A stretch of DNA of 64,000 bases from Raja brachyura (Eukaryota): assembly GCA_963514005.1 (NCBI GenBank), contig OY740785.1, positions 51,522,001 to 51,586,000 on the forward strand, in the 5' to 3' direction. The notes beneath the pieces are model-generated. The model was not told where the DNA came from, did no database searches, and saw nothing but the letters and a program-made list of their open reading frames with translations. Below are positions 50,012 to 63,414 of the stretch, piece after piece. The position numbers and the translations under genes are program-made. How positions within the stretch are numbered: position 1 is the first letter of the stretch; every line of letters begins with the position of its first letter.

Positions 50012-50991
50012 TCACTGGGGAGTAGTCGTATGTTCTCGGCCTGCATTCAGCACGGCTTCTGCGAACATTCCAGGAGCGGTAACAGGTTTATTATAAAACC
50101 GCTGAAAGGTGGCTTCACTGGCCCATCCCGCTGTGGCAAGAATATGGTCCATGGGCACCTCCATGACCTTTGCCGCCGACGTTGATGCAGCCCTGGTGGA
50201 ATGGGATTTAAAAACATTAGTATCAATACCTGCTTCGTTCAAAACGATCCTGAGCCATCTGGAGATTGTCTGTACCGTCACTCTATGGTGAGGTTTTTTG
50301 TGGCTAATTAGCAGGTATTGCTCCATTCCCCTTAATTTCCGCGTCACTCTAATATAGTGGCGGATATGGGTGGCTAAACATAGCCTAGCATCAGCGGGGT
50401 ATGCTGGAAACACCAGCTGCAGCCCTGTGAATCCAGGTCTATGCTGCTTAAGCAATTCATCAACGAAGAAAATAACCTTCTCTGGGGTAGAGATCATTCT
50501 GTCAATCTTGACCTTGTGAAGAGTCTGTACCCTTTGTGCCGAAGTCAGTGCCAATAACATCACCAGCTTCAGGGTGAGTTTGTCCAATTCAAGCCCAGCC
50601 ATGGGCGACCACGTCCTGAGTAGGGTCAGTACTTTCCCAATGTCCCAGGTGATGTTGGGGTCTTGGCGGGTTGGAATTAAATATTCCCCGCATCAGTTTG
50701 GACACCAGTTTATTGGATCCTACCTCAATATTGAGGTAGGATGATAGTGCACTCCTGGCGCTATTGATGGCACTGTAGGTGTTCGTCATGGTGTAACCCC
50801 GCAAGGAATTCCAGCACATCTGTGATTGAAACGGAGTCATATGCAATGTCCAAGCGGCCGCAGTAGGTTTCCCATTTTCTGATGTGCGATAAATATTGCC
50901 GTCTTGTGGACTCCCTGCATGATGCTCCCATGGTATCCATAGTCCTTGATGAGAGACCATACTGCAGTAATGGTCTGTTCAAATCCTGCAA
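50012..50991 (-). pseudogene. DIRS tyrosine recombinase, frameshifted
   Basis: LTSAQRVQTL (catalytic R), HSTR, AGW...FQRFY (catalytic Y); N-terminal core-binding region YSAINSARSALS. Confidence 0.92.
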
Positions 50992-52772
50992 GCCAATAAA
51001 TTCAAGTGACTATGGCAGTGATGTGGTTCCCCTGTAACAGGGTTCGTCACCAATTGTGGGCAACCCTCTAAGAGGACCCATGGTTGACTGATCATACCAA
51101 GGACCACCGGATACCATGACTGAGTAGGCCAGTCGGGTATGATAAGAATGCCATTAGCAGCATCTAGCTGGATTTTCCGCCTGACTGATGAGGCAAAATG
51201 GAGGAAATGCATAGAAAAACCATTTCCCCCAATCTAGCGAGAAAGCGTCCATCGCTATTGCCCCAGGATCTGGTTCCCATGATACGTATGTTGGTACCTG
51301 ATGGTTCAACCGTGACGCAAAAAGGTCAATATCCGGTTTACCAAATTTGGCTGTAATTTTGGCGAATATTTGGGGATTCAACATCCACTCGATGTTGTCA
51401 TTAAATTTCCGTGACCTGTTGTCCGCCACTGTGTTGAGCTTACCTGGTAAATAGGTAGCTGAAATCCAAATATTCCATTGTATGCACCAGAGCCAAATTG
51501 TATTAGCCAATTCATCACATGAAATTGACCTGGTACCGCCCATATGATTTAGATATGCCACCGCAGTGGTGTTGTCTATTTGGAGACGGACATGAGTGTC
51601 AGTAATGTTTGAACAATAAGCTCTAAGTCCGTGGAATGCCCCTAGCATCTCCAAATAGTTTATCCCTTGTGCTAACAAAAGGGTAGATTCAAGTGAGTCC
51701 CATCTGCCCCCACAACTAGTGTTGTTGTCCGTAGCTCCCCAGCCATGGGAGCTTGCGTCTGTTTGTAAGTATACCACCGGACGAGGCACAATGATGGGTT
51801 TGAATGAGTTATGGATCCGAATTGAGCAGCTGGAAAAACTGCTACGATTTCTCCAATTACCTTAGCAGTTTGTCTGATTGATGGTATACTGGCGCAGACC
51901 AGATTCTTGCATGCTTGAAAGACATCCCCAACTTTGTTAGTTGGTATGGTGGCAATCATGCGATTGGAATCTACCGTGAACCCCAGATAGTCCATGATCT
52001 GTGAAGGACAGAACTTTGATTTATCTGGATGGATAATAAATCCCATTTTTTGAAATATTTCCACAGTGGCTGAAACTGCCAATTTCGCTGACTCCAGTGT
52101 ATGCCCAATAATTAGGATATCATCCAGATAAGCCATGACCGTATGATTTTGCCTCCTCAGTGTTGCTAGCACTGGCTTGAGTAATTTGGTAAACAGTCTG
52201 GGGGCTGTGGTAAGCCCATTGGGCAAAGCTTTGTATTGCCAAAGTTGATCCATCCATGTAAATTTCAAGAACTTCCTGATGTTTCTGAATGGATACTGAA
52301 TAGTATGCATCTTTTAAATCAATGCATGCCATGAAGCAGCCCTTAGAAATCAAAGATTTGGCTGTTTCGAACGTGTCCATTTTGAAATGGGTATATTTTA
52401 CAAAGGTATTCAAATGGATTAGATCTATAATGACCCGACATCCACCATCTTTTTGGTTTTTGTAAATATATTAGATACAAATTCAATTGGTTCATGTGTA
52501 GTTCTTTCTATCACGCCTTTCTCTTGTAGTCTCAAGATTTCAGCATAGCCTACTGCTGTTTCCTTCCTGGAAAGTGCAAATTTGCGATTCGGCATATGCT
52601 GAGGTGGAGGAATTTGGCCATTTATGAACTCAATCTCATAGCCCTGAATACTTTGTAAGATAAACTCATCTGAGGTGATGGTTTCCCATGCCTCCTTAAA
52701 CCCCCGTAGTCTACCCCCAACATGTGAGGTTAGACTTGCAAGTGCATGGAATCCAGACCGCCTTACCTTCAT
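50979..52772 (-). pseudogene. DIRS RT - RNase H - DNA adenine methyltransferase-like ORF, frameshifted
   Basis: VGGRL..F..W, DLKDAY, LPNGL..APR.FTK, YLDD; TDAS..GWGA, INYLE, DNTTAV, ADxxSR; DLFAS ... YAFPPF. Confidence 0.93.
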
Positions 52773-54532
52773 GGTTATCGGTGGTCCCTGACGTGTGTTT
52801 GGTGGGACGTGGAGGTGCTGGGTTGCGCTGGTAATGTGGAAACCGCATTTTCCATGCTGGCCGTTGAGGGCCTAGCCCTAAAAAAGGCCTGGGTTGTTGA
52901 GGCTGTTGGTATAGAGGAGGTGCCGGAACGTAGGTCCTTGCTGGCCTTTCGGTTTGACCTCGTGGCCTGAAAAAAGGTGTTTTCTTGGCCGTTTGTCTGG
53001 TCAAGGTGTGTGACCTCATAAGACCCACTGTCTTGGCATTGTCATCTAAATCTTTGACCTGCTTCGGGAGGTCTTCTCCGAATAGCTGTCTGGGTGGTGG
53101 TGTTGGAGGTGCTCTGCATAGCCCCGCAAATTTGGGGTTTAATGTAGGCTTGATGATGCTTTTCCTAAAAGCATTGATCTCATATTGCGTATTGCAAAGT
53201 AGCGCCAGAGCATCCTCCTGTTCGGTGTTCAAGTCCACTCCATCCACCGACCTCGCAAACGCGGTAATCCCAGATGTGAGTAATTTCAGGATTCTTTGCA
53301 ATTTTACTTCCTGAGCTCTAATGCCCGGGCTGATATTGCCCCAAATTGGCATGTTCACAATAGGCACATTGAGCGAGTTGCAATTACCCGGTGCCTTGTG
53401 TCTGTCCATGGCCTTCGCAAGGACCTCCTCCTGTAGCTGATGGTTGGTGAGGAAATCTATGGTAGCAGCCAGCTTGGTATTGAGGGGTTGTCCCGATGAT
53501 ACGGGTAATCCAAACTTGGCTGCCACGTCCAGGAGCTCTTTCTGGGGAACCTCAGGTGCTACTGGAGCATGTACCAAGATCTCCTCTTCTTCTGGCCTCA
53601 TGCTATCCATGGATGATGGGGATATATCCATGAGTCCCCTGGAACTATGTGTTTCCCGCCTTTGATTTTGCAGGACTTGTTCCAAAATCCTCTCCATCCG
53701 ATCTATGCGCCCTTCATCGTGCGTGAATGGGCGGTCAGTCCTCATGCCCGAAGGAACTTCTGAGGCTCCTATCATCGGCCCGTACCTCGTCGAGGTAATA
53801 TCGGTGCCGTGACGATAAGTCGCTACCAGCCACCTCAGCGAAACTGAACAACTCCCGCGCGGATCTGCTCAAACGCCTTCTTTTGGCTGAGCTAAATCCG
53901 GCTGCCTCTGAGGGCATATGCGGTGAGAAGTCGGCACCCAACGCCGCAGCGTGGTGACCCGACATTCGCGCGGGCTTGCCGACTGTCCTTTTCCTGGACC
54001 CAGACGGCGTACGGTCCCGTCCCGCCCCGGTGAGCGGTGACCGTGGCGAGACTCCACCTGTGTGACTCCTCCTGGTCCAACTAGGTGGTGAGTCTCCACT
54101 GGCCCTTCCTGGTCTGCCAGTGGACTCGGGTCTCGCTGATTCACCAGGCCGCAATCTTGCGGCTCCTAGTGAAACCTCAGCCCGAAAAGGGCTAGGTTGT
54201 CGAGCTCTATCCCTGGCTCCTCCATGAGGGCTCAGGGAGAAGGGCCGTGCAGCAGCACGTGAACCCCGTTTGCTCGTCTCTGCCAACGATCCTGTTGGCG
54301 ATAATGAAATGGAGTCAGGGTCTACCTGCTCCGGCGCTGTACCGACTTCTTGCTCTGCGGGAACCCCGCTAGTGCTCAGCTGTGTCGGTGATTCGGGTCC
54401 TGTGACTACAGGGCTCCCCGATTTGCGCGCCTTTTTCCCGGCCCGTCCAACGGGTGCTGTAGAAGGGAGCTCCGGGATAGTTGGCCGGCAACTCCTTCCG
54501 GATGTCCTGCGGCCCGTACTCCTCTTGTCCAT
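52711..54532 (-). pseudogene. DIRS ORF1 (gag-like), split into overlapping 265-aa and 354-aa frames
   Basis: Position 5' of RT; S/R/P-rich N-terminus; PxNC..L.VP.VN..IW and LFGEDL motifs of DIRS ORF1; overlaps the start of the RT ORF. Confidence 0.8.
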
Positions 54533-54877
54533 GTCCCTGTTGGAGAGAAAATATACTCAAAACAGGAACAACCAGCTCAAGGTTGTCTATACTTACCTGA
54601 GTGGCCCTTATGAAGGGCTGGTGGTGAGCCGCGCTCCACCTCCAGCCGTCGACTGCAAATGCGAGCGACGATATGTCGCGCATGCGTGCTGGCGGGTTCT
54701 TCACAAAGTCACTCACGTGACTCCGAAATGAAATACATAGAACTATTCAAGTACTACACAGAGCTCTCATCAAACTCATATAAAAATTATATTTATACGG
54801 AATATATTGGAAACATTGTGCAATTATTATAAATATCTCGTAAAGCGATATGAAAGTCTGAACCCTGTGCTTTTGAC

Positions 54878-55125: not shown

Positions 55126-56183
55126 ACCAATTTTCTATCCATGTCAGCACTACCCCAATACCATTTGCACTAATTTTGCCCACTAATCTCCTATGTGGGA
55201 CCTTATATCATTATTCCATTTCCTCCAAAATCCCAAAGGTGTTTGAATTGGTGGGTTAACTGCCTCATGTAAATTGGCCTTAGTGTGAAGATGAGAGGTG
55301 CAATCTGGGTTTGTTGGTGTGAGTGGTATGAAGGGGGAATAGATTACAGGGGAAATTACAGCCTACCCTTATTATTGTGATACTCTTTGTAATGATTTAG
55401 TTAATAACAGACGGAACGTCTCCATTGTAATCAGATGTCACTGTGTCTTTAAGAACACAGGTTGATAATTACACTGCGGGAGGTCTCTGAAATTGACAAG
55501 CAATTGCTTCGATCAACTCTTGTGCCGTGATACTCTATTAAACAATGTAACAAACTTTAGCAGTAACAAAAAATACATTTTTAGCTGTTAAAAAGAGCTT
55601 TGTATTTGAAAACAAATATCAGAAGAGTTTTGAAGATGTTTAAGATTATGGAGGGTGGGAGATAGATGGCCAACCAGGAGATAGCGAGGTCCTCAATGAA
55701 TATTTCTGTTTTTATTGTGGAGAAAGATGTGAAGATGATGGCATTCGGGGAATGTTCATGGGGATGTCTTGGGTACAGTCCAAATTTCAGGAGCTGAACA
55801 TCTTAAAACATATGAAAGATAAATCTCTGGCTCCTGATCAGGTACATCCAAGAACACTGTGGGAAGCTAACAATTGCAGGGACTGGTGCAGAAAGGCATT
55901 CTGGTCAGCCTGAATGAGTTGGGCTGAATGTTCTGTTTCTGTGCTGTATGACTCTATAACTAGGACATCATTGGAATCTGGGATTAAAATTGGGGAGCTT
56001 ACCAATGGCATGAATGTTACTGTGTGCAATATAATTGCTGTGAACTAAACTGCGAGCGGAAAAAGATGTATCACCTATCCTTCCCATCTTTCTTAAGAGA
56101 AAAGCTTGGAGTTTCTATCATCTATAAAATGGGGGGGACCATCAGTCAGCTGATCTGCCATTTATCTATTGTTGCTTGCACAG

Positions 56184-56374
56184 TGTTGTGAGGCAAATGA
56201 ATTTTTTACACTACTCGTAATTTACTTAAACTTTATTTAAGCTTTAAGCAACTAATTTCCGTAATACATAACTTCAAAGCGCCTGGAAAATATCGCTGAT
56301 TCTGCAGGCCTCGCCGACCCGAGACCCCGCACATGCGCACACTCTGGAAAGGCCCCACACATGCGCACACTTCA
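56184..56374 (-). repeat. 3' LTR of the Gypsy element
   Basis: Direct repeat of 60799-60989; contains AATAAA on the - strand. Confidence 0.92.
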
Positions 56375-56388
56375 TTCTCCACTCATAT

Positions 56389-59260
56389 TTATAAGTTGAG
56401 ACGGTCAGGAGGTTTAATATGTCTTGATGACTGTCGCAGCACTGGAGCAACAGCAGATAATGGTGTTTCAATAGCTGGTGGTACATATATTGCTTGGTCA
56501 TCAACTTCACTCATATTGTTATTTACATTTTCAATTTTAGAATTACTTTTAGAAGCTTTCATAGGGGATGATGGGAGTGTTGAAGCAAGTTCTCGATTAA
56601 TGTTATCAAGGAGTGATGGAGCTGATGGAGAAGACTGACATGGTGCAAGGTCACGAAGTGAGCCAGTTGACTGACGTCGATCCTGATACTTGATAGTTGC
56701 ATAAAAAGGGTTAACATCAATCAGTTCAACTTCATCAACAAAAGGCTCATTCCTATTTGATCGGACATACCGACGAAGCAACAGGCCCGGGCTAGTCAAC
56801 CATGATGGCAGAGAAGTACCACTAGAAGAACGCCATTTGAAGTTAAAGAACCACTCATGCGTAGTAGTATTGGTAGCAGTTGATAGTAGAGACCTGATGG
56901 AGTGTAATGCATCGGGTAGAACACGTTCCCACTGCTGATCTGGTATGTCATTTGACTTCAAAGCCAGTTTCACTGCTTTCCAAATGATTCCGTTATACCT
57001 CTCAACCTGACCATTTCCAATAGGATGATATGGTGTTGTTTTACTTGTTGCAGTTCCTCTATTAGAAAGGTAGTCTTTTAACTCTTTTGACATGAATTAG
57101 GTGCCCCTATCAGAATGTATGTAACTTGGAAATCCACAGAATGAAAACAGTTGATCTAAACATTTGATAACCGTAGCAGCTGACATATTTAGACAAGGAA
57201 AGGGAAATGGAAACCTTGAATATTCAGCAACTATGGTAAGTATATAAACATTTCAAGAGGAGGATGGTAAAGGCCCTTTGTAGTCAATACTCCAATGTTC
57301 CATAGGTTGAGTATCTTTGATCAATCTTCCTTATTCAGGATGTAAGAACCTTGCTTTTAATTCAGCACAGATTTTACATGAAGCACATGTCATCTTCACA
57401 TCTTCTGTAGAGAAAGGTAAGTTTTTGAAAGGAACATAGTGTAACAAACGAGTGACTCCAGGATGACACAGCCCATTGTGAAGATCAGTGATTGCAGAAG
57501 AATGAACAGAGACACAAAATGCTCGGGTTAATGTATCCGGAGCAACATTATCCTTACCAGGGCGGTACCCAATTGAATAACTATATGCAGATAATTCAAT
57601 CCTCCATTCATGAATTTTACTGTTTTTAATCTTCATTTGCTTCTGATTATCTAGCATAAAAGCTACTGAACACTGATCAGTTATCAAAGTAATGTGCTGG
57701 CGAGCAAGGAAATGACTCAATTTTCTCACTGCTTCAATAATTGCTGTAGCTTTCTTTTCGGCGGGTGGGTAGTGCAATTCACTACCTTGGAGAGTACGAG
57801 ACATGAAAGCCACTGGTCGCCCTCCTTGATTTAATGTTGCTAATACTACTAAATCAGAGGCATCACATTCAACAACAAAGGGGAGGTCCTCATCGATGGC
57901 GTGTAATGTCGCAGATTCTAATTGTTTCTTTAAAGAAGTAAAGGCACCAATTGCTGTCGAGTCAAGGGGGAAAGATTTTGCTCTAATCAAAGGTTGAATT
58001 TTGTCAGAAAAATTTGGTATCCATTTACAATAATAAGCAAACATACCAATAACCCTTTGTATAGAGTTTAATGTAGCTGGAACAGGTATCTCTTGGAGTG
58101 AGCGGAATCTTTTTGGATCAGGCTTGATTATATGATTTCCAACACAATAACCAAGAATATTAATTGGTGACACTGATGTTATTGACTTTGCCTCATTTAA
58201 TGTTAGATTTTTTGAATGTACAACTTCTAAAAACCGTTGTACATGTTCGTCATGTTCAGCTTGGTCTTTTCCTGCAATAGTTATATTATCAAGATAAGGG
58301 AAAGTATCTTTAAGGTTTTCCTGTTCAACAAGTTTGTCCATCTCTCTCTGAAAAACAGCCACACCATTAGTTACACCAAAAGGAACTCTGCAGTAGTGGT
58401 ATAATTTCCCATCTACTTCAAACGCAGTGTATTTCTTCTCTGATTCTTTCAAAGGAATTTGGTAGTAAGCACTTTTTAGGTCAAAAGAAGAGAATACCTT
58501 ATACTTAGCTAATGTATTGATAATCTCTTCTATACGAGGTAATGGATATGCATCAAGCTCCGTGAACTGGTTTATAGTTTGAGAGTAATCAATGCAGAGT
58601 CTCTTTCTATGTCTATACAAGGGGTCCTTAACCACGACAACTTGTGCCCTCCAAGGGGAAGACCTGGGTTCTATGATACCTTCTCGTAAAAGATTAGTTA
58701 CTTTTACGAGAAGGTATCATAGAACCCAGGTCTTCCCCTTGGAGAGCACAAGTTGTCATGGTTAAGGACCCCCTTGGAGAGAGTGTTGATAAAGTTTCTG
58801 TCATCTTTACTAAAATGTCTCGATTTTGTAGCAATTGGCTTGCACTTAGAGGATAAATTAGTGAATAATGAAGGATGTTCAACAGATGCAGCAGAAAAAC
58901 CACAAAATACTGGTGGCTTTGCCAATAGAAGATCAGGCATAGTTCCTTCATACATTATTTGAAGTGATCTGTGCTGTTGTTGAAAATCCTGACCTAGAAT
59001 TATATCGCTACACAATTTTTTCAAAATACCAAGACATACAGATTTATAACTAGTTTTGTTCAGAATAAAGTCTACAATGCAAAATCCAATAATTTGAGTA
59101 TTGAGAGTTGTCAGAGCGATCGAGATTTCTCTATTTGAAGGAATTATAGTTAGATTTAGTCAAGACACAACTTGTTCACTTATAAAACTTTCTGAATTGC
59201 CAGAATCAAGTAGTACATTAAGTGAATGGCCATTGATGGATACCGTTGTAGCTGCATGAG
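56389..59260 (-). pseudogene. Gypsy pol (protease, RT, RNase H, integrase), disrupted
   Basis: LLDSG; RLCIDYSQTIN, DLKSAYYQI, PFGVTNG, YLDN; ECDASD; HNGLCHPG..CASC; TTPYHPIGNGQVER. No chromodomain before the stop. Confidence 0.94.
58618..58776. repeat. Fold-back inverted duplication (~75-bp arms, 8-nt spacer) inside the Gypsy RT
   Basis: 58618-58692 versus 58701-58776: two substitutions and one indel. Confidence 0.9.
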
Positions 59261-59320: not shown

Positions 59321-60754
59321 TCACACCTTTAGTAGTTGCTTGGACTTGCATACTCTAGAATAATGTCCCTTCTTGCCACAACTGTTACACGTTGCCTCTC
59401 GAGCAGGACATATCTCTCTATTATGAATATTACCCCCGCAAAAGTAACACTTCCTTTTCGAATAAGTATATGCTACAGCAAGGGCACATTTATCAGTAGA
59501 AATTGTTTCACCTTGCTCCATATAAGTACTTGGGTGAGATTATTTTGTAGTAGTTGCAGCAGAATACACATTAGATGAGCCATAAGCATCTGATTTTTTC
59601 TGAGCCGAGTCTAATGAGTAAGCTTGATTGTAAGCTGACCTTAAATCCAAGGTTTTGTTTTTTAATAGTCTCTGTCGTATTAAAGGCGATGCCAAACCAA
59701 TGATAAAAGTGTCTCAAATAAGTTCCTGTCGATATTGATCAGCTGTAACTGCTTTGAAGACAGTCTTTGCTAACGCCCCTGTCCCACTTACGTGTCCTTG
59801 GCATGCTAATTACGCGACAGCCGTGACAGTCTTGCGAAGGTCGCGGCGATTTCATGTGCCCGCACAGCCGTCTGGAGTGCATGACGTCATTTGAAGATGG
59901 ACGCAAAATGCAGGACTAAGTCAGTGGGACCGGCAGCATCTCTGGAGAGAAGGTATGGGTGATGTTTCGTGTCGAGACCCTTCTTCAGTCTGAAAGAGGG
60001 TCTTGACCCGAAACGTCACCCATTGCTTCTCTCCAGAGATGCTGCCGGTCCCGCTGAGTTACTCCTGCATTTTGTGTCTATCTTCAATTTTCTTGGCCCC
60101 TCTCTGGGAGTAGAAGTGGGGGCGGATCCGGACCGCAACAGCCGTGAGCCCCAGGTCGAGCTCGATGATCGTTTACCTGCTTCTGCTGCTGTTGGAGGTG
60201 AGACGTTGCGTCACGCCAGGGTCTTGGGCCTGTCCCACTTTGGCCGTCAGTTACGCGACAGGCCGTTGGCGTGCGGAGATTTGGTTGGCTACAAAAATTT
60301 CAGATGTTGCGCAAAACTCCATACCCCTCCGCGCTCCTCGGTGGGACCGGCCCCACGCGGTCATATGATGCCCGTGCACCTCAATGTAGCCACGAGGTCA
60401 CGTAATTTGCGTGCCAAGTACACGTAAGTGGGACAGGCCCTTAAGTCTTTGAAGTGACTCACCAGGTTTTTGTTTATGAGTAGCAAGGAGGTGTCGAGGA
60501 AATATTACATTGAGTGTTTTAATGAAGAGTCTGCTTAGTACATCAATAGCAGAATCATAAGTTGTACATTCCTCTATGTAATCATATACATCATAAGAGA
60601 CAGAGCTTATTAATGTCCTGAACCTGTCTGGTGCATTGTTGCCACACTTATCAACAAAGTTATTTAGTGTACAAAACCAGTGTTTCCATTCCTTTGCAGC
60701 AGTAGGTGAGTTGGGATCCAGATCCAAGCATTGTGGTTTCAATAGTTTCTCCAT
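59321..60754 (-). pseudogene. Gypsy gag, interrupted by a MITE
   Basis: MEKLLKPQCLDLDPNSPTAAKEWKHW...QKPGES; two zinc knuckles CYFCGGNIH..C and CNSCGKKGHYSRVC. Removing the MITE restores LQRLSKDC. Confidence 0.9.
59774..60441. mobile_element. PIF/Harbinger-type MITE containing a Penelope-derived palindrome (59891-60087)
   Basis: ~44-bp imperfect TIRs GCCCCTGTCCCACTTACGTG / CACGTAAGTGGGACAGGCCC; TAA TSD at 59771-59773 and 60442-60444. Confidence 0.88.
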
Positions 60755-60798
60755 CTTGATTTCACACTGCTTAACTTCTGAGGATGAGTTGCTTACAT

Positions 60799-60989
60799 TT
60801 TTGCGAGGCAAATGAAACTTATTCGCTACTCGTAATTTACTTAAACTTTATTTAAGCTTGAAGCAACTCATTTCCGTAATGCATAACTGCAAAGCATCTG
60901 GAAAATGTTGTTGATTCCGCAGGCCTCGCCGAACCGAGACCCCACACATGCGCACACTCTGGAAAGGCCCCGCACATGCGCACACATCA
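60799..60989 (-). repeat. 5' LTR of the Gypsy element
   Basis: Direct repeat of 56184-56374, bounded by the CACAG TSD. Confidence 0.92.
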
Positions 60990-63414
60990 CACAGATATAG
61001 GGTAGCAGGTTGGGCATAGGGGGAGGGGGCAGCTGTGCTGTGGAGGAGCAAAAGAAAAGAAAGCGAAGCAAAATAAAAGGGCTATAATGCCTTCGAATTA
61101 TGAATAGGGAAAGAAAGTATTTCAGCAAAAGAAACCATCAGCAGGATGAGATTGATCATTAACCAGCATTGTTGCCAATAAGCTTTTGATAAAGTAGCTG
61201 CCCAGGCATGCTGATTGCACATTAAGAAAACCTGAGTATATTTTACATTCAAAATTGGTGCAAGGGGGTGCCTGGTTTGCAGTGATTTGAGGCATCTATT
61301 GTTCCTCTGAAAATGAATCTTAACTGGGCCTGTCAGATTCCTGAGGAATGAGGAGCAAATACTGGTCCATTCAACTGTGCCAGCTGCTGTCCATCAAACC
61401 TATTTACTGTAAGAGCAAACTGATTAGAACGGTTGAAAAATTCTACAGTTATGAATCATCTTTCAGTTAGAGCAACTCTGGAAAAAAAAATGACTGCACA
61501 ACTGGCATTTATCATCCTACAATAACAAAATATTAAAGATTTACAGCACTGTCATTTCAGGTTTCTACATCCTAATCTCTGTATATTAATGTTCCACGTC
61601 CAGATACTGAGGAAAAATGAAACTCTCAAATTCAAGTTTTAGCCTTAATGAATTTCTGCATAATGAATGAATGCAAATAAAATATGAAACGCTATATTAG
61701 TGACCAGAGATCATTAAGTCAAATTTCCTTGTCCTTCCCTGTTAAATGATCCTAATAATTTTCTCATATATAGTATCTTTAATAGAGAAAATTGTCCCAG
61801 CATAATTTGTTGCAGAAATTGAGATTTGAAATAATGGTAAAGCTATCAAACTTTGCAAGTACAATGGACAAATTCCATCCGCAACTTCAGGATAGAAATC
61901 ATACATTGCTCTGTTTGCATTCCTTTCTATGTATATGTCCATAAACTAATGAATTGTTGAGAATTTCAAGTATTTATGAGCAATTTGTTTGCATAGAGTA
62001 ATGGATATTTTAACAGCAAAATAATGCAAAATTTGTGTTTTATAATTCTCTGGCCCAGACAAAAAAGGCAAATTATCTAGTTGTGTACATGTGTACAAAT
62101 TGTCATTCCTGCAAAGATTTCAAAAGACTGTACCCATTAAAGTAATGAACATGTTTTAAAGTTTAATTATTAAAACTCCTCCTGGATGCTCCATTTTTTG
62201 TGCAAAATGTTAAAAGTTTAACTGTGTTTCTTAACTCCTGGTTTTCCGTCTGTGCAAGTTATTACATGAGATTAGGTACCTGTTTTGCATGATGACCTTG
62301 TTAGCGTTTTCTCCAGTGATGCAGGTGATGTGATAAAGGATGAAGCCCACAATACAGGAACTGTTTAATCTTTGTGATTATCTTTCTTTGCAATGCCTCT
62401 ACATTGACTGTAAGTTTCAGGACAATATTGGTATGTACGCTATTGTTGCATGATGACTTTGAGATAATGGCGCCATCTGATATTTTATTGTGCCTTGCAA
62501 ACTATAAAGGTCCCAGTTCTTGTTTCAATTAACTGGTTTTGAGCCAAATCTATTCTTACCTACATTTATCTTGACAGTGAAATTAATTATTTTACAACAG
62601 TTTGCTGTGAGGTGTTTTTTGCTGGGAAGGGCATGTTTATGAAAACAAGATAATGTATTACTTTGCAATCACAAATGGTAGACTAATATTTCATACTTGT
62701 CATCAAAATTTGAAAAGGGGAGTAATGTCAATTCAGTAATATTGCAAAGAGCAGGTCCTGCCATTTGTGGTCCAGGCTTGTCTAAGAAAGGAGGGAAGAT
62801 TATCTTATTTACTCCAAAGATAAGGGAAGATAAATAATGGCAGGAAGTTGAGTTAATATGCAAATGTTGATCACATTTTCCTGTGAACTTTGTTTCAAAT
62901 ATGTGAACAATGGATTATTTTATTATTATTCTAAGTTTTTACTAGAAAGAAACAGAGATAAACAGAGAGAGAATAAGGTTTGTTTAGACTGTACTCTGTG
63001 ATGGACAATTTGGCTTAGATCTTTTTTTCATTTTAGAAGATAGGCTTAACAATTGTTGCTCATATCTTTCAGATCTGTAATTGTTTTGGTGGAGGTCTTT
63101 AGAACAAGAATTTTAGCTGCACTATTTTGTAATGATATCATCACAAACGCATGATCTGCTATATTCATTGGATACGTCATACCCACAGTAAAAAGACAAA
63201 TGGTATCATTATTTTGCAATTTATTTATAATTCTTGGGGAAGGTAAGCAAAAGAAGGAAATGTTTCTTTTTAATAAATTTCTTCAGCTCAAGTCAAATAA
63301 ACAGAACTAAAATTAAATTGAAACTGATAACAATACCAAATCAAAATGATGTTTGAAATTGGAAATAAAACATCAAAAGGGGTAATTGAGTCATGGAATA
63401 TCAGCGGAGGTTGA

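Follow-up and report, generated by a model that had tools for sequence, protein, structure and literature searches.

How does a Gypsy element begin reverse transcription when no TGG follows its 5′ LTR? In the parts of the literature available to us, LTR elements of animals are regarded as primed by tRNA as a rule, and the Tf1/sushi group as the Gypsy exception. Tf1 has no tRNA PBS; its self-priming mechanism, in the available portions of PMC7175516 and PMC10085805, involves a PBS directly after the CA of the LTR that pairs with an 11-nt LTR segment, and three duplexes around the PBS form a "pretzel" (PMC10085805). The question was raised here by 64,000 nt of Raja brachyura DNA (the window; contig OY740785.1 of GCA_963514005.1, positions 51,522,001 to 51,586,000), in which a Gypsy element was predicted to prime itself by complementarity between its LTR and the site that follows it.

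Structure of the element in the window

The element is 4.8 kb long and lies on the minus strand of the window, with the pairing site at its 5′ end. Its LTRs are 191 nt each (5′ LTR, 60799..60989, with a decayed terminal end; 3′ LTR, 56184..56374, ending in CA), are 88–89% alike, and are flanked by an identical 5-bp TSD, CTGTG, at 60990..60994 on the 5′ side and 56179..56183 on the 3′ side. A polypurine tract (56375..56384) stands directly before the 3′ LTR. The family thus has the TG...CA LTRs, short TSD and polypurine tract of Ty3/gypsy elements. The best PDB match was Ty3, and the domain order PR-RT-RH-IN was found in proteins P0001, P0064 and P0105, RT, RH and the start of IN being visible in the window.

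Gag starts at the ATG at 60754 (60398..60754) and is broken near 60437 by a later insertion. It is followed on the minus strand by two CCHC zinc knuckles (59348..59449), a region encoding RT, RNase H and the start of integrase (57331..58716), and the 3′ part of integrase (56389..57096). The YLDN motif of the RT, the two knuckles and the absence of a chromodomain, all named in the original prediction, were confirmed. The window copy is dead, as it carries stops, frameshifts, the 660-bp insertion in gag (59778..60437) and a 72-bp fold-back duplication (97%) at the start of RT (58621-58772). The insertion is bounded by terminal inverted repeats of 41 bp, has TAA/TTA-like flanks, is presumably Harbinger-like, and contains a head-to-head pair of SINE-like repeats (59891-60087). 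A terminus similar to that of the insertion was also observed to break another copy, L242, just past its PBS.

Pairing between the LTR and the PBS

On the minus strand, ATGT (60798-60795) 3′ of the 5′ LTR is followed by AAGCAACTCAT (60794-60784), the exact complement of ATGAGTTGCTT at 60871-60861, at the positions originally given. As had also been described, the 11-mer in the LTR is just upstream of an AATAAA, which begins at 60852, and with the 3′ LTR copy the pairing reaches further at its 3′ end but contains one mismatch. When the 25-mer after the LTR was shuffled 5000 times, no shuffle gave 11 pairs and 2 gave 10.

The 11-mer is exact in the window, but the family uses a different register, in which the LTR arm at 60858..60870, overlapping the 11-mer and predicted to be the self-primer, faces the PBS position at 60785..60797 over 13 bp. 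The corresponding arm copy in the 3′ LTR is at 56243..56255. A one-base spacer (60798) separates the LTR end from the PBS, which does not contain TGG. Read in this register, the window copy is broken at 60860 and 60796 and matches at 12 of 14 positions. Judged from the sequence, its 11-mer is a worn remnant of a 13-bp pairing located one base after the terminal CA of the LTR. Just after the arm, a short stretch (60840..60857) may form a hairpin with the AATAAA (60852-60847) in its loop; this hairpin was predicted for a sister copy and many relatives.

Copies in the ray genome

Family candidates in the same genome (2.7 Gb) numbered in the hundreds (587 at first look, 40 of which were scored). 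Examination of 109 copies left 86 usable ones, with both strands ungapped, after 23 had been dropped for gaps or a missing LTR; one of the 86, L141, is evidently misaligned. Helix columns 1–11 were Watson-Crick paired in 76–83 of the 86 copies and column 13 in 84. The outer pair 60871:60784 (column 14), part of the original 11-mer, was paired in 37 of 86 and did not hold as a general feature. Column 12 was A-T in 41 copies, G-C in 27 and T.C in 11; two subfamilies are distinguished by the exchange between A-T and G-C, a double-sided change inside a single genome.

At arm position 12 (60869), the G/T variant was considered as the bound of an 11-nt primer and rejected in favor of recurrent mutation. 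Three observations led to this reading: the two LTRs of one element differed at this position in 10 of 15 cases, in a sample deliberately enriched for copies with T in the 5′ LTR, compared with an average of 8.4%; the variant was unlinked to other sites (best p of 56, 0.035); and an internal site with its TCATTTC context was likewise a hot spot of C>A change (33 of 143 pairwise comparisons, compared with 2.2% for all C). The C>A change in TCATTTC (60869 and 56254 in the window; loci L267–L286) may represent a genome-wide non-CpG mutation hot spot.

Relatives of the element

A search with the RT-RH frame returned 1182 long homologs, the best 120 of which were 49–72% identical; the full-length ones were single ORFs of about 1200 aa. 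Among these best 120, the YLDN motif was present in 85, and neither a chromodomain (PF00385, PF24626) nor a Tf2-type SH3 domain was detected in any (0/120); chromodomains were found in the sushi-type control loci L126, L128 and L170. Named homologs, compared as proteins, came from cnidarians, Trichuris, crustaceans, Mytilus, Clavelina, a ray and a catshark. A search of the ESM Atlas yielded generic names only, a search of viral contigs gave no relatives, and a broad alignment gave no usable pattern.

The RT-RH region of the window (57334-58677) was 68–72% identical to unnamed and shrimp proteins and 54–55% identical to the named ray and catshark proteins. Such uneven identities are compatible with horizontal transfer or with the presence of several old lineages. 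Inside bacterial MAG assemblies, six loci of this animal clade (L111–L116) were located, probably as a result of host contamination.

An alignment of 40 homologs was used to fetch 80 metagenome loci and 6 genome-contig loci, from which only those that included both an LTR end and the start of gag were retained, most of the others being fragments. With the own-genome copies included, 36 elements were obtained and cut by eye to 27 representatives, several of which are close kin. The LTR end was defined by an LTR pair in 11 of the 27 and by a partly circular rule (CA followed by a T-rich start) in the other 16.

Co-variation of the arm and the PBS

The original prediction had proposed that related elements be checked for changes in the LTR and PBS that preserve the pairing. 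Pairing was scored by the self-priming criterion in the available part of PMC6317226, i.e. at least 10 paired bases starting 0–5 nt after the 5′ LTR. Perfect runs of 11–18 bases, each with the element's own LTR, were found in 22 of the 27 representatives, starting at offset 1 from the LTR end in 20 of them and at offset 2 in the other 2. Over all 27, the mean run was 12.1, compared with 5.7 for 702 cross-family pairs, and none of 100,000 label permutations reached the observed sum of pairing runs. Ten bases were reached by 27 of the 702 cross-family pairs, because some families share arm letters, and by 8 of 5400 shuffled PBSs; in host DNA 3′ of the 3′ LTR, the run was at most 6 in 12 of 12 cases. 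Where the LTR end was defined by an LTR pair, 9 of 11 representatives passed and the other two matched at 13 of 14 positions.

Five of the 27 representatives (L043, L071, L074, L077 and L079) failed the strict test. The contig of L043 ends inside its LTR; a match at 13 of 14 positions was obtained for L071 and L074, and at 8 of 14 for L077 and L079.

RNAalifold returned a single helix of 13 bp; 10 of its 13 pairs showed double-sided changes, and 98.3% of the helix cells were paired, compared with 73.3% after shuffling and 22–50% in slid registers. The alignment used for both consisted of the 22 passing representatives cropped around the helix, so that these values are descriptive and do not amount to an independent test. 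The proposed co-variation was thus observed, and the helix in the PBS register is conserved clade-wide with compensatory change.

The tRNA site and controls from the same genome

TGG was absent from the first 8 nt after the LTR in all 36 clade elements (0/36), in agreement with the earlier reading of the window. On these sequences, a PBS for a tRNA 3′ end is excluded.

Two groups of elements from the same genome were used for comparison. In TGG elements of other clades, TGG was located in the first 7 nt and the pairing runs with the LTR were 4–8 bases, none of 10 elements reaching 10. Sushi-type copies (L117–L129, L135 and L136) had their own LTR/PBS pairing of 7–10 bp at offset 2, with 4 of 11 reaching 10 bp; a chromodomain match was obtained in 3 of 6 copies tested, and the one LTR inspected showed a TATA-like box 28 nt upstream of the arm.

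L157, L158 and many others were observed to form a TGG-primed Gypsy family that is young: its 203-nt LTRs are identical and its open frames are long, often reaching 1419 aa. Instead of YxDD, this family has an IVDD motif.

Phylogeny and naming

Trees were inferred from RT (54 rows, 208 columns) and from RT+RH (27 rows, 401 columns) under LG+G4 without a mixture model, the rows being thinned by hand. The outgroup was the RT piece of a broken DIRS-like element found on the minus strand of the window at 50012-54556, in which RT, RNase H and tyrosine-recombinase-like frames were read by eye. Chromoviruses were represented by vertebrate and two fungal rows, with Tf1, Ty3, Cigr-1 and plant chromoviruses left out. 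Rows primed by TGG, which we take to be Mag-like, were absent from the first RT+RH tree and included in a later one.

The clade formed one side of a long branch with support of 100/99 (RT) and 100/100 (RT+RH), apart from the sampled chromoviruses, from the rows with IN before RT (Gmr1-type order) and from the TGG-primed rows. A sister relation between the clade and chromoviruses was not rejected by the AU test (p 0.241, RT), and the best RT+RH tree placed both on one side (69/22). The window element had been suggested to belong to a lineage outside the classic chromoviruses; this suggestion agrees with an RT that did not nest among the sampled chromoviruses and with the missing chromodomain in the best 120 homologs. 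The clade is not a member of the Tf1/sushi group as sampled.

This clade may be the same as that of Cigr-1, which we take to be about 4 kb in size, or that of MolGy1-16. No paper pairing "YLDN" with "retrotransposon" was found in the literature searched, and no YLDN or DYSQT string occurred in the searched supplements of the Cigr and MolGy papers. "PBS" does not appear in the main text of PMC6238403 and PMC8556966.

Signals around the arm and transcript reads

In the YLDN clade, 20–69 nt separate the arm end from the LTR end, compared with 219–230 nt in 10 of 11 sushi-type copies of the same genome. The leader is also very short, gag starting 16–52 nt after the LTR end in the clade families. 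A TATA-like box 20–35 nt before the arm was detected in only 2 of 22 families, and the two extra duplexes of the Tf1 "pretzel" did not exceed the chance level (p 0.11 and 0.92). Modest enrichment was seen for a short hairpin immediately following the arm (19 of 22 families, compared with 12.8; by a second measure 14, compared with 8.2).

Few reads of the family were present in a raw poly(A) RNA run, with 14 covering the 5′ end and 50 the 3′ end, in both directions and with no pile-up of starts or ends. Among the listed datasets holding family matches, none is on record as RNA.

Proposed mechanism and alternatives

Together, the co-variation and the lack of a tRNA site support the self-priming first inferred for the window copy. 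Tf1-like self-priming in an animal Gypsy clade that is not chromoviral, with an unusually short R-U5 of 20–69 nt, is considered the probable explanation. By analogy with Tf1, transcription would start at the 5′ end of the arm, at about 60870-60868, and the first 11–13 nt of the RNA would fold onto the PBS. A cut at the 3′ end of the arm, beside the short hairpin and probably made by the element's RNase H, would free a 3′-OH, from which RT would copy the very short R-U5. Plus-strand synthesis would then copy the primer into the next PBS, so that the arm and the PBS would stay matched automatically, and this would explain their change in lock-step.

A different role for the helix is that of a regulatory RNA structure hiding the poly(A) signal of the 5′ LTR, priming being achieved by another route. 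In 10 of 22 families the arm includes AATAAA or ATTAAA, a partner strand follows the 5′ LTR but not the 3′ LTR, and the leader is very short, all of which would suit masking. However, the hexamer is found only downstream of the arm in 4 families, including that of the window, in which AATAAA is outside the helix, and is absent in 8; masking thus cannot be the general purpose of the helix, 12 of 22 arms having no hexamer. In addition, the fixed one-base offset from CA (20 of 22) is needless for masking, there is no second PBS, for which the leader would in any case offer little space. Masking in place of priming is considered unlikely; masking may be a second purpose, and a dual role of the helix in masking and self-priming is possible.

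Self-priming could also proceed differently, with the primer supplied by the arm copy close to the RNA's 3′ end, or by a second RNA in trans, and transcription starting upstream of the arm. The arm is present in both LTRs, neither a TATA box nor a pretzel links it with the RNA's 5′ end, and it ends in an almost invariant A run facing T. Poly(A) sites lie 10–30 nt from the hexamer; in 14 of 22 families a hexamer is located within the arm or shortly beyond it, which would put the expected site downstream of the arm, so that the arm is unlikely to be the end of the RNA. No precedent was found in the literature searched, and we regard this route as improbable.

A host RNA, such as a tRNA half or another small RNA, might be the primer, the LTR match being secondary. 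Half-tRNA priming is described for some Ty1/copia lineages in the available part of PMC6317226. The longest match of the PBS to host tRNAs was 5–6 nt, in a check covering 17 distinct sequences of only 5 anticodon types, and Rfam gave no match over 60600-61100. The letters of the PBS shift between families in step with each family's LTR, a pattern not expected from a conserved host RNA. A host primer is very improbable. Chance complementarity in a single AT-rich copy, for which the partly accidental exact register of the original prediction could speak, is refuted by the conservation with compensatory change and scarcely merits consideration.

A bolder extension of the self-priming reading can be put forward tentatively, i.e. 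that self-priming was invented independently of Tf1/sushi in a large animal-wide clade. Its design would be minimal, with a 13-bp helix and a small hairpin, an R-U5 down to 20 nt, and a primer often doubling as the poly(A) signal, one fold both priming DNA synthesis and masking early termination.

Rearranged copies

Dead-end products were sought with four exact patterns ending at PBS position 10, 11, 12 or 13, and 1, 0, 0 and 1 matches were obtained, respectively. L288 was considered as a dead-end product and rejected as a small deletion. L287 (G000:C8, about 52264.1-52265.5 kb) is a rearranged 1.4-kb copy in which an LTR and 13 nt of PBS are followed, in order, by a 719-nt stretch of inverted integrase, two short fragments, the 3′ end and an LTR. 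Its switch from the PBS to inverted integrase occurs within PBS positions 11–13, via a 10-nt microhomology. This junction, a single event that other causes also fit, is weakly suggestive of mis-transferred plus-strand strong-stop DNA; it could also be due to repair after insertion.

Comparison with known systems and significance

Like Tf1 and Tf2 of Schizosaccharomyces pombe and the Tf1/sushi group as available sources describe them, the elements studied here are Ty3/gypsy, have no tRNA PBS and show PBS/LTR pairing of similar length. Unlike Tf1/sushi, the clade lacks a chromodomain and a Tf2-type SH3 domain, forms a separate RT clade and has a YLDN-type motif in most members. It also differs from Tf1 in giving no pretzel signal, and from the sushi-type control in having no conserved TATA box.

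Self-priming is predicted for Tcn1 chromoviruses and for the Ty1/copia TAR elements Houba and Osr-1 in the available part of PMC6317226, according to which, in the case of TAR, it was already thought to occur outside Tf1/sushi; the pairing rule used there also holds for our 22 of 27 representatives. As far as that source goes, Tcn1 and TAR are plant and fungal groups, whereas the YLDN clade is an animal group of compact single-ORF elements of about 4 kb. The Conserved Hairpin Site of GalEa (PMC5445492) and the pyrimidine tract of Dictyostelium Skipper (PMC5006619) likewise involve no tRNA PBS, and unconventional priming has been proposed for them. The available parts of these two papers report no LTR complement of the site; the YLDN clade has one, and it co-varies. 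Cigr-1 and MolGy1-16 (PMC6238403, PMC8556966) belong to marine-animal Gypsy clades for which the available text describes no priming, and are set beside the YLDN clade by description alone. In the available parts of the literature consulted, including PMC3670739, PMC6934838 and PMC13524379 and with subscription papers and Repbase notes outside its scope, no self-priming was described for this clade.

Whether self-priming has evolved several times or is ancestral, as raised in the available part of PMC3601003, is a question on which a second, widespread Gypsy clade that primes itself would bear. Its very small 5′ fold would be a simpler substrate than that of Tf1 for the cutting of an RNA duplex by RNase H. 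Self-priming elements would be missed by PBS-based annotation and, we infer, would escape control by 3′ tRNA fragments.
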